NCBI RefSeq assembly: GCF_029227855.1 | Contig: NZ_CP074356.1 | Origin: Escherichia coli | Lineage (GTDB): Bacteria; Pseudomonadota; Gammaproteobacteria; Enterobacterales; Enterobacteriaceae | DNA: 64,000 bases | Reading direction: 5' to 3' (one strand) | Shown: piece after piece, positions 16,095 through 58,403 of the stretch | How positions within the stretch are numbered: position 1 is the stretch's first letter | Layout of the letters: every line of letters starts with the position of its first letter | The notes under the pieces: model-generated | What the model was told of the DNA's origin: nothing | What the model saw: the letters and a program-made list of their open reading frames with translations, nothing else | The model's database searches: none | Position numbers and translations under genes: made by a program

Positions 16095-16812
16095 AATAAA
16101 TATCCTCCGGCATAGCCGGAGGTTTTTCAAATGCGCCTATAAGGCTCTCTTACCAGCCGCGCCCTAACAGGCGCACACGATCTGACATTTGCATCCAACT
16201 TCGTTACTTACGGCCCGTAAACGGGCTGCCCGGATAGGGAATCGATAACTGCTCTCCCATTTTATCCTCTTCAAGCTGGTGCTTTATGTAATCCTGTATC
16301 TTCGCCGTGTTCTTACCCACCGTATCGACGTAGTACCCTCTGCACCAGAACTCCCTGTTCCTGTATTTGAATTTCAAATCACCAAACTGCTCGTAAAGCA
16401 TCAGACTGCTTTTCCCTTTCAGATATCCCATAAAGCCGGATACGCTCATTTTGGGCGGGATCTCCACAAGCATATGGATATGATCTGCACAGCATTCAGC
16501 TTCCAGAATCCGTACACTTTTCCACTCACACAGCTTTCTCAAAATACTGCCTATTGCTCTACGCTTCTCTCTGTAGAACACCTGTCTTCGGTATTTTGGC
16601 GCAAAAACTATGTGATATTTACAGTTCCATCGGGTGTGCGCTAAGCTCTTTTCGTTCCCCATTGGGACCCCCTTTTGATTTCTTGTTTGACACTTGCAGT
16701 TGCCAGACCGCAAGGTGTTTTAACAAATCAAAAGGGGTTTTAATAACTGGCTTAAAGCTGAAAGCTTTCCGGAACCCCCAGCCTAGCTGGGGGTTTTCTG
16801 TGCACAAGAAAA
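16095..16812 (-). mobile_element. IS200: IS200 insertion sequence (about 0.71 kb; IS200/IS605 family), boundaries +/- 15 bp
   Basis: Contains the 152-aa HUH/Y1 transposase gene, a perfect subterminal palindrome cccccagc-cta-gctggggg (16775-16793) upstream of tnpA, and a second hairpin cctccggc-ata-gccggagg (16104-16122) near the other end. The fur-chiQ spacer is about 0.7 kb longer than I recall for K-12. Confidence 0.85.
16204..16662 (-). CDS. tnpA: IS200 transposase TnpA (152 aa)
   Basis: ORF 16204..16713; start at MGNEKSLAHTRWNCKYHIVFAPKYRR...; HUH motif HIHMLVEI and catalytic-Tyr region YYVDTVG. Confidence 0.92.
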   Translation of the reverse strand: MGNEKSLAHTRWNCKYHIVFAPKYRRQVFYREKRRAIGSILRKLCEWKSVRILEAECCADHIHMLVEIPPKMSVSGFMGYLKGKSSLMLYEQFGDLKFKYRNREFWCRGYYVDTVGKNTAKIQDYIKHQLEEDKMGEQLSIPYPGSPFTGRK

Positions 16813-51237: not shown

Positions 51238-52350
51238 ATGACGGATAATCCGAATAAAAAAACATTCTGGGATAAAGTCCATCTCGATCCCACAATGCTG
51301 CTGATCTTACTGGCATTGCTGGTTTACAGCGCCCTGGTTATCTGGAGCGCCAGCGGTCAGGATATTGGCATGATGGAGCGTAAAATCGGCCAAATCGCGA
51401 TGGGTCTGGTCATCATGGTGGTGATGGCGCAAATTCCTCCACGCGTTTATGAAGGCTGGGCCCCCTATCTCTATATCATCTGTATTATTTTGCTGGTGGC
51501 AGTAGATGCTTTTGGTGCCATCTCTAAAGGCGCTCAACGCTGGCTGGACCTCGGTATCGTTCGTTTTCAGCCGTCGGAAATTGCCAAAATAGCCGTACCA
51601 CTGATGGTAGCGCGCTTTATCAACCGCGACGTTTGCCCGCCATCGTTGAAGAACACTGGCATCGCGCTGGTGCTGATATTTATGCCCACGCTGCTGGTGG
51701 CTGCACAGCCTGACCTGGGAACATCAATCCTCGTTGCGCTTTCCGGTCTGTTTGTACTGTTCCTCTCTGGCCTTAGCTGGCGTCTGATTGGCGTCGCAGT
51801 AGTGCTGGTAGCGGCGTTCATTCCGATTCTGTGGTTCTTCCTGATGCATGATTACCAGCGCCAGCGCGTAATGATGCTCCTGGACCCGGAATCAGACCCA
51901 CTCGGCGCGGGCTATCACATTATTCAGTCTAAAATTGCTATTGGCTCCGGCGGATTACGCGGCAAAGGCTGGCTGCACGGCACTCAGTCACAACTTGAAT
52001 TTCTCCCCGAACGCCATACCGACTTTATCTTCGCGGTACTGGCGGAAGAGCTGGGATTAGTGGGCATTTTGATTCTGCTCGCTCTCTACATTCTGCTGAT
52101 CATGCGCGGGCTGTGGATAGCCGCCAGAGCGCAAACCACCTTTGGTCGCGTCATGGCTGGCGGCTTAATGCTGATATTATTCGTTTATGTCTTCGTAAAT
52201 ATTGGTATGGTAAGCGGTATTCTGCCGGTTGTAGGGGTTCCGCTCCCACTGGTCAGTTATGGAGGATCGGCGCTAATTGTGCTGATGGCTGGGTTCGGGA
52301 TTGTAATGTCAATCCACACCCACAGGAAAATGTTGTCGAAAAGCGTGTAA
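51238..52350 (+). CDS. mrdB: Peptidoglycan glycosyltransferase RodA, SEDS family (370 aa)
   Basis: ORF track 370 aa [39 protein letters not shown]... Confidence 0.97.
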
Positions 52351-52360
52351 GAGGTGCGCA

Positions 52361-53449
52361 ATGCGTAAGCAGTGGCTCGGGATCTGCATCGCGGCAGGAA
52401 TGCTCGCGGCATGTACAAGCGATGATGGTCAGCAACAGACGGTAAGTGTACCGCAGCCTGCGGTATGTAACGGCCCCATAGTTGAAATTAGCGGGGCGGA
52501 CCCGCGTTTCGAACCACTGAACGCGACGGCAAATCAGGATTACCAGCGCGACGGTAAAAGCTACAAAATCGTGCAGGATCCGTCTCGATTTAGCCAGGCG
52601 GGACTGGCGGCAATCTATGATGCCGAACCCGGCAGTAACCTGACGGCCTCTGGCGAAGCATTCGATCCGACACAGTTGACGGCGGCCCATCCAACGCTTC
52701 CGATCCCCAGCTACGCCAGAATCACTAACCTGGCTAACGGGCGAATGATCGTGGTGCGCATTAATGATCGCGGTCCTTACGGCAACGACCGCGTTATTTC
52801 GCTTTCTCGCGCGGCAGCTGACCGTCTTAACACGTCAAACAACACCAAAGTTCGTATCGATCCGATTATTGTCGCCCAGGATGGTTCGCTTTCTGGTCCT
52901 GGTATGGCTTGTACCACAGTTGCCAAACAGACTTACGCCCTGCCTGCACCTCCCGATTTAAGCGGTGGCGCGGGAACAAGTTCAGTGTCTGGCCCGCAGG
53001 GTGACATTCTTCCGGTCAGTAATTCGACGCTAAAAAGCGAAGATCCGACCGGCGCGCCGGTAACCAGCAGCGGTTTCCTCGGTGCACCAACGACGTTAGC
53101 GCCTGGTGTGCTGGAAGGCAGCGAACCAACACCTGCGCCACAGCCCGTTGTTACAGCCCCCTCGACAACGCCTGCAACCTCGCCTGCAATGGTGACACCG
53201 CAAGCCGACTCACAAAGCGCCAGCGGCAACTTTATGGTGCAAGTCGGGGCCGTTAGCGATCAGGCTCGTGCGCAACAGTACCAACAGCAACTGGGACAGA
53301 AGTTCGGCGTCCCCGGTCGCGTAACTCAAAATGGCGCGGTCTGGCGGATCCAGCTTGGCCCATTCGCCAGCAAAGCCGAAGCCAGTACCTTGCAGCAACG
53401 TTTGCAAACCGAAGCCCAATTACAGTCATTTATTACCACCGCGCAGTAG
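52361..53449 (+). CDS. rlpA: Septal ring lytic transglycosylase lipoprotein RlpA with SPOR domain (362 aa)
   Basis: ORF track 362 aa MRKQWLGICIAAGMLAACTSDD... with lipobox. Confidence 0.95.
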   Translation: MRKQWLGICIAAGMLAACTSDDGQQQTVSVPQPAVCNGPIVEISGADPRFEPLNATANQDYQRDGKSYKIVQDPSRFSQAGLAAIYDAEPGSNLTASGEAFDPTQLTAAHPTLPIPSYARITNLANGRMIVVRINDRGPYGNDRVISLSRAAADRLNTSNNTKVRIDPIIVAQDGSLSGPGMACTTVAKQTYALPAPPDLSGGAGTSSVSGPQGDILPVSNSTLKSEDPTGAPVTSSGFLGAPTTLAPGVLEGSEPTPAPQPVVTAPSTTPATSPAMVTPQADSQSASGNFMVQVGAVSDQARAQQYQQQLGQKFGVPGRVTQNGAVWRIQLGPFASKAEASTLQQRLQTEAQLQSFITTAQ

Positions 53450-53588
53450 CGTAAAGCAGGCATCTGATGTGTCAATTTCTGTAAATGACGTTAACAAAGT
53501 CACGCGGAAAGTCAGATGCCTGCCGGTAGTGCATTTGCTATAGTAGGGCACTTTTTTTAATTCCATCACGGATGTCGTAGTTCAGACC

Positions 53589-54800
53589 ATGAATACCATT
53601 TTTTCCGCTCGTATCATGAAGCGCCTGGCGCTCACCACGGCTCTTTGCACAGCCTTTATCTCTGCTGCACATGCCGATGACCTGAATATCAAAACTATGA
53701 TCCCGGGTGTACCGCAGATCGATGCGGAGTCCTACATCCTGATTGACTATAACTCCGGCAAAGTGCTCGCCGAACAGAACGCAGATGTCCGCCGCGATCC
53801 TGCCAGCCTGACCAAAATGATGACCAGTTACGTTATCGGCCAGGCAATGAAAGCCGGTAAATTTAAAGAAACTGATTTAGTCACTATCGGCAACGACGCA
53901 TGGGCCACCGGTAACCCGGTGTTTAAAGGCTCTTCACTGATGTTCCTCAAACCGGGCATGCAGGTTCCGGTTTCTCAGCTGATCCGCGGTATTAACCTGC
54001 AATCGGGTAACGATGCTTGTGTCGCCATGGCCGATTTTGCCGCTGGTAGCCAGGACGCTTTTGTTGGCTTGATGAACAGCTACGTTAACGCCCTGGGCCT
54101 GAAAAATACCCACTTCCAGACGGTACATGGTCTGGATGCTGATGGTCAGTACAGCTCCGCGCGAGATATGGCGCTGATCGGCCAGGCGTTGATCCGTGAC
54201 GTACCGAATGAATACTCGATCTATAAAGAAAAAGAATTTACGTTTAACGGTATTCGCCAGCTGAACCGTAACGGTCTGTTATGGGATAACAGCCTGAATG
54301 TCGACGGCATCAAAACCGGACACACTGACAAAGCAGGTTACAACCTTGTTGCTTCTGCGACTGAAGGCCAGATGCGCTTGATCTCTGCGGTGATGGGCGG
54401 ACGTACTTTTAAAGGCCGTGAAGCCGAAAGTAAAAAACTGCTGACCTGGGGCTTCCGTTTCTTCGAAACCGTTAACCCACTGAAAGTAGGTAAAGAGTTC
54501 GCCTCTGAACCGGTTTGGTTTGGTGATTCTGATCGCGCTTCGTTAGGTGTTGATAAAGACGTGTATCTGACCATTCCGCGTGGCCGCATGAAAGATCTGA
54601 AAGCCAGCTATGTGCTGAACAGCAGTGAATTGCATGCGCCGCTGCAAAAGAATCAGGTCGTCGGTACTATCAACTTCCAGCTTGATGGCAAAACGATCGA
54701 ACAACGCCCGCTGGTTGTGCTGCAAGAAATCCCGGAAGGCAACTTCTTCGGCAAAGTCATTGATTACATTAAATTAATGTTCCATCACTGGTTTGGTTAA
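53589..54800 (+). CDS. dacA: D-alanyl-D-alanine carboxypeptidase PBP5 (403 aa)
   Basis: ORF track 403 aa; SLTK active site; C-terminal amphipathic anchor. Confidence 0.97.
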
Positions 54801-58332: not shown

Positions 58333-58364
58333 AAAAAACCCGCTTTTTGAAGCGGGTTTTTTTG
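58333..58364. terminator. Bidirectional terminator between convergent lipA and tatE
   Basis: aaaaaacccgct-ttttgaa-gcgggttttttt. Confidence 0.75.
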
Positions 58365-58403
58365 TATCGAACAAGATATTGAGGGAGCGTCCTGCTCGCC
58401 ACG

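Follow-up and report, generated by a model that had tools for sequence, protein, structure and literature searches.

A conserved RNA stem-loop between rlpA and dacA in Escherichia coli and related Enterobacteriaceae

Described stem-loops and the rlpA-dacA locus

Hairpin-stabilised transcriptional pause sites form the class to which the his and trp leaders belong. The malE-malF REP elements are said, from work by Newbury et al. in 1987, to be intercistronic stabiliser hairpins. The protective role of REP elements has been summarised (PMC6061677), and the same paper by Dar & Sorek (2018) described E. coli stem-loops that have no U-rich tract, lie at steady-state 3' ends, and are proposed to protect from PNPase and RNase II.

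The element considered here is located in a 64-kb window of E. coli DNA (the whole stretch that was analysed, 64,000 nucleotides), which has the E. coli mrdB-rlpA-dacA gene order. In the list of open reading frames, mrdB (rodA) covers positions 51238-52350, rlpA 52361-53449 on the + strand (rlpA also in the RefSeq annotation), and dacA 53589-54800, with its ATG at 53589. The rlpA stop codon (TAG, 53447-53449, + strand) is separated by 6 nt from the first arm of a perfect 12-bp inverted repeat, GCAGGCATCTGA (53456-53467, + strand), and the second arm, TCAGATGCCTGC (53512-53523, + strand), is its exact reverse complement. Between the arms lie 44 nt (53468-53511, + strand), the interior of the hairpin according to the predicted fold and the alignment, with an A+T content of 61%. 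The initial annotation had given these arms and this spacer, had called the spacer AT-rich, and had placed the repeat directly after the rlpA stop, all of which agrees with the sequence. It had also set a T-run about 15 nt after the repeat; the real distance is 28 nt (T-run at 53552-53558), and the nearer T's are only the TTT at 53534-53536.

RefSeq features under the hairpin region are rlpA and dacA only, in every E. coli genome listed, and no Rfam family matched the region (the best model, a plant microRNA, reached 16.4 bits against a gathering score of 65, E = 3.5). The earlier remark that no annotated element was known here can therefore be kept. In the literature on rlpA combined with ProQ, RNase III, RNase E, terminator or stem-loop, no description of the hairpin was found.

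The hairpin region is present as a single copy at ≥95% identity in 5424 of 5426 complete E. coli genomes (median one place per genome, maximum two), and the repeat of K-12 MG1655 is identical to that of the window. With at most two places per genome and no second copy in the window, a REP or BIME was rejected, as had already been proposed from the sequence. Unlike the malE-malF REP, the rlpA hairpin is single-copy and locus-specific, and it has no similarity to the REP consensus. In the engineered strain E. coli B95.deltaA (L082), the rlpA stop region is changed from TAGCGTAAA to TGATAACAA (equivalent of 53447-53455), and both hairpin arms are intact.

Perfect inverted repeats of at least 12 nt with a spacer of 3-100 nt occur four times in the window, compared with 0.43 expected from first-order Markov simulations. 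As 35% of the simulated 64-kb windows carried at least one such repeat, the repeat alone is not significant. The other three repeats of the window are two canonical terminators and one IS200 end. The terminators, AAAAAAACCGCCAGCG-TTTC-CGCTGGCGGTTTTC (1881-1919, repeat 1888-1917) and AAAAAACCCGCTT-TTTG-AAGCGGGTTTTTT (58333-58365, repeat 58333-58362), are both of the bidirectional type, with an A-tract, a GC-hairpin and a T-tract, and contrast with the rlpA hairpin in the same window. The IS200 end is the perfect inverted repeat CCCCTTTTGATT ... AATCAAAAGGGG (16669-16737, 45-nt spacer) inside an IS200C copy. A 201-nt IS200C query was present in 2468 of the 5426 E. coli genomes (median 2, up to 35 places), where it is annotated as IS200/IS605-family tnpA; the window is accordingly not K-12 DNA.

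Folding of the + strand RNA (53456-53523) gave -31.4 kcal/mol with z = -7.7, and none of 200 shuffled sequences folded as well, so that the RNA folding proposed in the initial annotation as a check came out in favour of a stem. The RNA of the opposite strand reached -23.5 kcal/mol (z = -4.0), which leaves the + strand 8 kcal/mol better. In the predicted fold, the whole hairpin is 68 nt long, and a GC-rich basal stem of 12-13 bp encloses the partly paired 44-nt interior, where inner helices are formed by 53476-53482 with 53504-53510 and by 53486-53489 with 53499-53502. The predicted helix amounts to approximately 24 bp (13 + 7 + 4 bp) and is interrupted by a 7-nt asymmetric internal loop.

RNAfold also proposed a lower closing helix (53431-53437 with 53525-53531), by which the mapped RNA 3' end at 53533/53534 would be flush with a three-way junction. 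Its pairing is not conserved (median z = -0.24, p ≤ 0.05 at 4 of 49 loci), and this helix was therefore dropped as a feature.

Tested as an intrinsic terminator, the structure has neither a stem with a short loop, the 12-13 bp GC-rich stem enclosing 44 nt with inner helices, nor a U-tract of 7-8 nt: the 3' flank reads CGGUAGUGCAUUUGC and is A-rich in several genera.

Pairing across species and its strand

The comparative set consisted of 80 dacA loci from Enterobacterales species representatives, each anchored on the TATAGT upstream of dacA. Forty-nine Enterobacteriaceae-like species were aligned with MAFFT, the hairpin arms being columns 24-35 and 85-96. Their genera include Escherichia, Citrobacter, Enterobacter, Leclercia, Lelliottia, Pluralibacter, Pseudocitrobacter, Kosakonia, Phytobacter, Siccibacter, Kluyvera, Cedecea, Buttiauxella, Mangrovibacter, Shimwellia, and others.

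In this alignment, 71-76% of the cells were paired, compared with 32-44% when the 3' partner was slid by 1-3 columns, and neither the paired fraction nor the covariation score was reached in any of 500 shuffles. Pair 33-87 occurs as UA (23), CG (19), UG (3) and AU (1), pair 31-89 as UA (42) and CG (4), pair 26-94 as AU (15), UA (8), GU (4) and CG (2), and pair 29-91 as CG (33) and UG (16). RNAalifold recovered the core of the stem (columns 28-33 with 87-92) with no structure supplied. In an alignment-free duplex test, the 21 nt before the promoter spacer were paired with the upstream 85 nt in real and shuffled sequences; in 32 of the 49 loci none of 200 shuffles was as good, with a median z of -3.8. 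Loci of other families gave a median z of -0.2; among them, a subset from Erwinia, Pantoea and Serratia was positive. The species are related, which means that the shuffle statistics overstate independence and that the counts are not independent events; the changes in the stem occur in several different genera and in different directions.

The two arms differ in how they are conserved. In a profile anchored on the -10 element, the sequence of the 5' arm is not conserved (at most 0.6 bit per position), whereas the 3' arm is nearly invariant (1.6-2.0 bits) and moderately conserved even in families that do not have the hairpin. Pairing is thus kept through changes in the 5' arm, and the near-invariance of the 3' arm arises because the same DNA is the -35 region of the dacA promoter. 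The 5' arm is free to vary and has followed the 3' arm through substitutions of the compensatory and wobble kind. The stem, kept with compensatory changes in the 49 species, is confirmed as real and beyond chance by its folding and by conserved pairing with covariation, and the conservation that the initial annotation had asked about is present. Unlike the REP repeat family, the rlpA hairpin is conserved by covariation at one orthologous site.

A G·U pair of the + strand corresponds to an A·C mismatch in the opposite strand, and also in a cruciform formed by the DNA. In the 49-species alignment, the core stem had 36 G·U cells against 8 A·C cells, and the inner helix 87 against 18. Taken with the better + strand fold, this excess indicates selection on the rlpA-sense RNA.

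The initial annotation had suggested an RNA processing or attenuation structure between the elongasome operon and dacA. An RNA-level structure at the mrd-rlpA/dacA boundary is what was found; the attenuation part did not hold, since no alternative pairing is conserved. The duplex of the rlpA 3' coding region with the hairpin interior gave a median z of 0.08 (p ≤ 0.05 at 2 of 49 loci), and an attenuator was rejected. The anti-terminator-like pairing of the E. coli repeats (rlpA 3' coding region with the interior) was likewise discarded, as it is not conserved.

The rlpA 3' end, the dacA promoter and rival explanations

Published K-12 positions were converted by subtracting them from 717551, which is valid up to window position 53551. 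In the Term-seq data of Adams et al. 2021 (PMC7815308), a steady-state RNA 3' end in the rlpA sense lies at 53533-53534 (+ strand, ...GCCUGCCGGUAGUGCA / ...GCAU), listed on the K-12 minus strand at 664018 with a score of 91306 and a second time at 664017 with a score of 41794. Mapped through the K-12 alignment, this end is 10-11 nt past the stem. It is comparable in height to the ybeD terminator peak of the same tables (73288 and 48391; PMC7815308). Adams et al. classed the rlpA-sense end as "orphan", as it is 84 nt past the rlpA stop and the limit for "primary" ends is 50 nt (PMC7815308); the hairpin explains this peak, which was published with no interpretation. Transcript 3'-end data had been named in the initial annotation as a check, and they revealed a strong end next to the stem. 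The two absences that it had set against a functional structure, of covariation and of RNA ends, do not apply here, as the stem covaries and the 3' end is mapped.

The transcription start site of dacA is an A at 53550 (+ strand), determined by SMRT-Cappable-seq (b0632 start, K-12 664001, reverse strand; PMC6131387). The promoter elements were assigned as -35 ATGCCT and -10 TATAGT (PMC9338883). By this assignment, the -35 hexamer (53516-53521, + strand) lies inside the 3' arm of the hairpin. The extended -10 element, TGcTATAGT (53536-53544, + strand), is 6 nt upstream of the start site and invariant in 78 Enterobacterales loci. Strong GFP expression has been reported from a dacA promoter fragment that starts at window position 53522 (PMC9338883). 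With the start at 53550, the 3' arm (53512-53523) corresponds to -38 to -27 of the dacA promoter, the rlpA RNA end falls between the dacA -35 and -10, and the T-run (53552-53558, + strand; T7 here, T6 in K-12) is +3 to +9 of the dacA mRNA.

The T-run is accordingly not a terminator tail of the hairpin, and no curated Term-seq 3' end is reported at 53552-53558. A second, small hairpin (53528-53552) was considered as a terminator together with the T-run and was rejected, being weak (-8.1 kcal/mol, z = -1.55) and built of promoter -10 sequence.

Transcription continues across the hairpin. The only operon variant with rlpA in the SMRT-Cappable-seq data is rlpA-dacA-ybeD, from a start at K-12 665332 (PMC6131387), and transcripts thus read through. 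This start corresponds to window position 52219, inside the 3' part of mrdB, so that rlpA has its own internal promoter besides the long rsfS-rlmH-mrdAB-rlpA operon.

This unannotated, conserved hairpin probably belongs to the U-tract-less stem-loops of Dar & Sorek (2018), defining the rlpA message's 3' end and protecting it. In the 3' untranslated part of the mrdAB-rlpA message, the inverted repeat gives rise to a long RNA stem-loop, which would fix the steady-state 3' end at 53533/53534 and form a barrier to 3'-to-5' exonucleases. Polymerases coming from the mrd and rlpA promoters would at least partly continue into dacA-ybeD. The read-through RNA would be cut in the single-stranded linker (GCA/U/UUGC, slashes marking the mapped ends) or degraded back from further downstream, and the rlpA part of the cut transcript would survive thanks to the hairpin. 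Both mapped end positions have a U two nucleotides downstream of the cut, in keeping with the RNase E signature reported by Chao et al. (2017), and RNase E is a candidate for making the end. The distance of 10-11 nt from stem to end is also compatible with polymerase stopping or pausing.

This distance is shared with the pauses of the his and trp leaders, where it separates the hairpin base from the RNA 3' end. Unlike those nascent, rare RNAs, however, the rlpA-sense Term-seq peak is as strong as a terminator peak, and the hairpin has no leader peptide or attenuator context. As in malE-malF, a stable intercistronic hairpin would shield the upstream segment from 3'-to-5' decay, with unequal abundance of the segments as the presumed outcome.

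The likeness to the class of Dar & Sorek (2018) consists in a precise steady-state end just downstream of a stable stem-loop and in the absence of a U-rich tract after the stem. There are also differences: the members of the class are terminator-sized, whereas the rlpA hairpin is 68 nt long with a structured, sequence-conserved interior; they are found in untranslated tails, whereas the rlpA transcript continues into a translated downstream gene; and the 3' arm of the rlpA hairpin is also the -35 region of the next promoter. The class is also characterised by read-through that rises upon inhibition of Rho. For the rlpA hairpin, supplementary file 2 of Adams et al. (PMC7815308) contains no Rho termination region at K-12 6637xx-6641xx, but this carries no information, since a change in read-through would be hidden by the strong dacA promoter, which is 17 nt downstream.

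The double duty of the 3' arm as the dacA -35 region is an unusual feature of an otherwise known kind of element. One DNA segment is under two constraints, as a promoter -35 and as one strand of an RNA helix, and the partner strand evolves to pair. The element is fairly ordinary in kind and reveals no new kind of mechanism. In E. coli and its relatives, it marks the true border between the cell-elongation message, mrdAB-rlpA, and dacA (PBP5). Constructs in which the dacA promoter is replaced or moved, or the 3' end of rlpA is tagged, break the hairpin and may alter rlpA mRNA stability or read-through into dacA.

The rival that survives best, although we consider it unlikely, is a non-canonical terminator, in which the nascent hairpin, possibly with NusA or NusG, would make the polymerase release at 53533/4 and insulate the dacA promoter. 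The strong and precise 3' end just past a very stable hairpin would suit it, as would the position of that end directly upstream of the dacA -10, a sensible stop for an incoming polymerase. A GC-rich stem straight after the stop codon and an RNA 3' end shortly thereafter are shared with intrinsic terminators, a short UUU follows the end (53534-53536), and folds show some GC-rich hairpin after rlpA in most other Enterobacterales families. The rlpA hairpin, however, has no U-tract, with 3 U in the 11 nt of CGGUAGUGCAU and an A-rich flank in the Cedecea and Buttiauxella group; its end is 10-11 nt off the stem instead of 7-9 nt, and its apical region has 44 nt instead of a 3-8 nt loop. A consensus scan found no + strand terminator in 53000-54000. 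Read-through is substantial: full-length primary transcripts from K-12 665332 enter dacA-ybeD, and no rlpA-only variant is recorded. A scan for a hairpin plus a T-run, asking if canonical terminators take the place of the long hairpin elsewhere, was positive in few loci of any group (7 of the 49 long-hairpin loci, 2 of 8 loci of other families with a hairpin signal, and 5 of 21 hairpin-less loci); its criterion was too strict for the result to be informative.

Far less probable is a DNA-level element at the dacA promoter, either an operator for a dimeric regulator or a supercoil-dependent cruciform, with one half-site on the -35. The 3' arm does cover -38 to -27 of the promoter, and a conserved dyad of the interior, TGTnA-N7-TnACA, lies at -70 to -54. 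A palindromic operator was nevertheless rejected, as the half-sites are unequally conserved (5' arm ≤0.6 bit, 3' arm 1.6-2.0 bits): the changes are compensatory or wobble ones and preserve no recognition sequence. In addition, the half-sites are 56 bp apart centre to centre, which is atypical for an operator, and G·U exceeds A·C about 4.5-fold, which is not expected from double-stranded DNA or a cruciform.

An equally small chance is given to an RNase III processing site that would separate the rlpA and dacA parts of the read-through transcript. Such transcripts exist, and the interrupted helix of approximately 24 bp (13 + 7 + 4 bp) lies between two cistrons. The mapped 3' end, however, is outside the helix rather than inside it with a 2-nt stagger, no curated + strand 3' end falls within 53456-53523, and the 7-nt asymmetric internal loop breaks the helix.

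A function on the opposite strand is more doubtful still; in this case a short transcript, divergent or antisense and coming from the dacA promoter region, would be terminated by the hairpin or have it as its body. Term-seq mapped a weak minus-strand RNA 3' end to 53450 (…GCCUGCUUUACG; K-12 664101 (+), scores 1166 and 1788, PMC7815308), which follows UUUA and lies 6 nt beyond the hairpin. The antisense open reading frame c0723 of CFT073, located in the spacer, gave an in vitro transcription signal with a slight preference for sigma-S (PMC3141248), and a possible minus-strand -10, TACTAT (53545-53540), overlaps the dacA -10. Taken together, these suggest a short divergent transcript of approximately 80 nt. 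Yet the minus-strand end is about 25-80 times weaker than the sense-strand end, and both the wobble counts and the energy of folding speak for the + strand. The TAAA in front of the 5' arm lacks conservation, and the published start-site data examined contained no start on the minus strand.

That the repeat is a functionless chance product, as its occurrence in 35% of random 64-kb windows (perfect 12-bp repeat, spacer ≤100 nt) might allow, has a negligible probability, being contradicted by covariation in 49 species, strand-specific wobbles, and an RNA end right after the stem.

The hairpin interior and neighbouring observations

The interior (-82 to -39 relative to the dacA start site) is conserved in sequence at 1.0-1.9 bits, well above the neutral flanks and in Enterobacteriaceae only, with the pattern TGTCAaTTt.TGTAAa...caTTAACAAA.TCAyGCG.AAAGTC. 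Pairing reaches 78% in the inner helix (columns 49-55 with 77-83), where pair 52-80 occurs as GC in 11 and CG in 10 species, and only 49% in the apical 4-bp helix. Pairing explains only a part of the interior conservation. Where Erwinia and Pantoea species retain the stem, it encloses an unrelated sequence that can be only 15 nt long (locus L073, for example), so the function of the stem does not need the interior.

The sequence of the interior is conserved beyond what a mere barrier would require, and this suggests that it has a second function: it could hold an upstream promoter element or a regulator site, or be an RNA-level binding surface. Two forms of such a role are conceivable but doubtful. 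The rlpA 3' fragment of approximately 80-100 nt with its end at 53533/4 might be a stable 3' UTR-derived RNA in which the interior, UGUCAAUUUCUGUAAAUGACGUUAACAAAGUCA, serves as a ProQ-type surface or base-pairing seed, or the overlap of the 3' arm with the -35 might couple upstream transcription to dacA promoter activity. If true, a stable 3' UTR-derived RNA would tie the expression of the elongasome operon to other envelope genes.

The near-palindrome TGTAA-N7-TAACA (53480-53496) is centred near -62 of the dacA start, and its GTnA...TnACA is invariant in the 49 species. Its general form, T-N11-A, is that of LysR-type regulator boxes. Three genes downstream is ybeF, a gene for a putative LysR-type regulator, and a link between this gene and the dyad would be pure speculation. 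A CRP site in the interior was rejected by inspection, since the half-sites TGTAA and TAACA are 7 nt apart and not 6.

The promoter spacer of many genera (among them Enterobacter, Kosakonia and Lelliottia) contains the perfect 6-bp palindrome TATAGC-N4-GCTATA, with its right half within the -10 region. It was observed in loci L004, L015-L018, L024-L028, L031 and L050, at the equivalent of window positions 53527-53542, and the E. coli form is the degenerate TAGTGCATTTGCTATA.

The T-run after the dacA start (A-C-U7) is conserved, and its length varies in E. coli: T7 in the window, T6 in K-12 and in an O6:H16 strain, and TTATTTT in locus L001. At pyrBI and codBA, UTP-sensitive reiterative transcription takes place at a U-run near the start site, and the dacA U-run, by its position near the start, may recall these sites.

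No canonical Shine-Dalgarno sequence is present near the dacA ATG, and the insertion of one raised DacA levels (PMC9338883). The 39-nt dacA 5' UTR contains the motif CACGGATGTCGT (53567-53578), which is conserved throughout the order as CAyGGATGyyGT.
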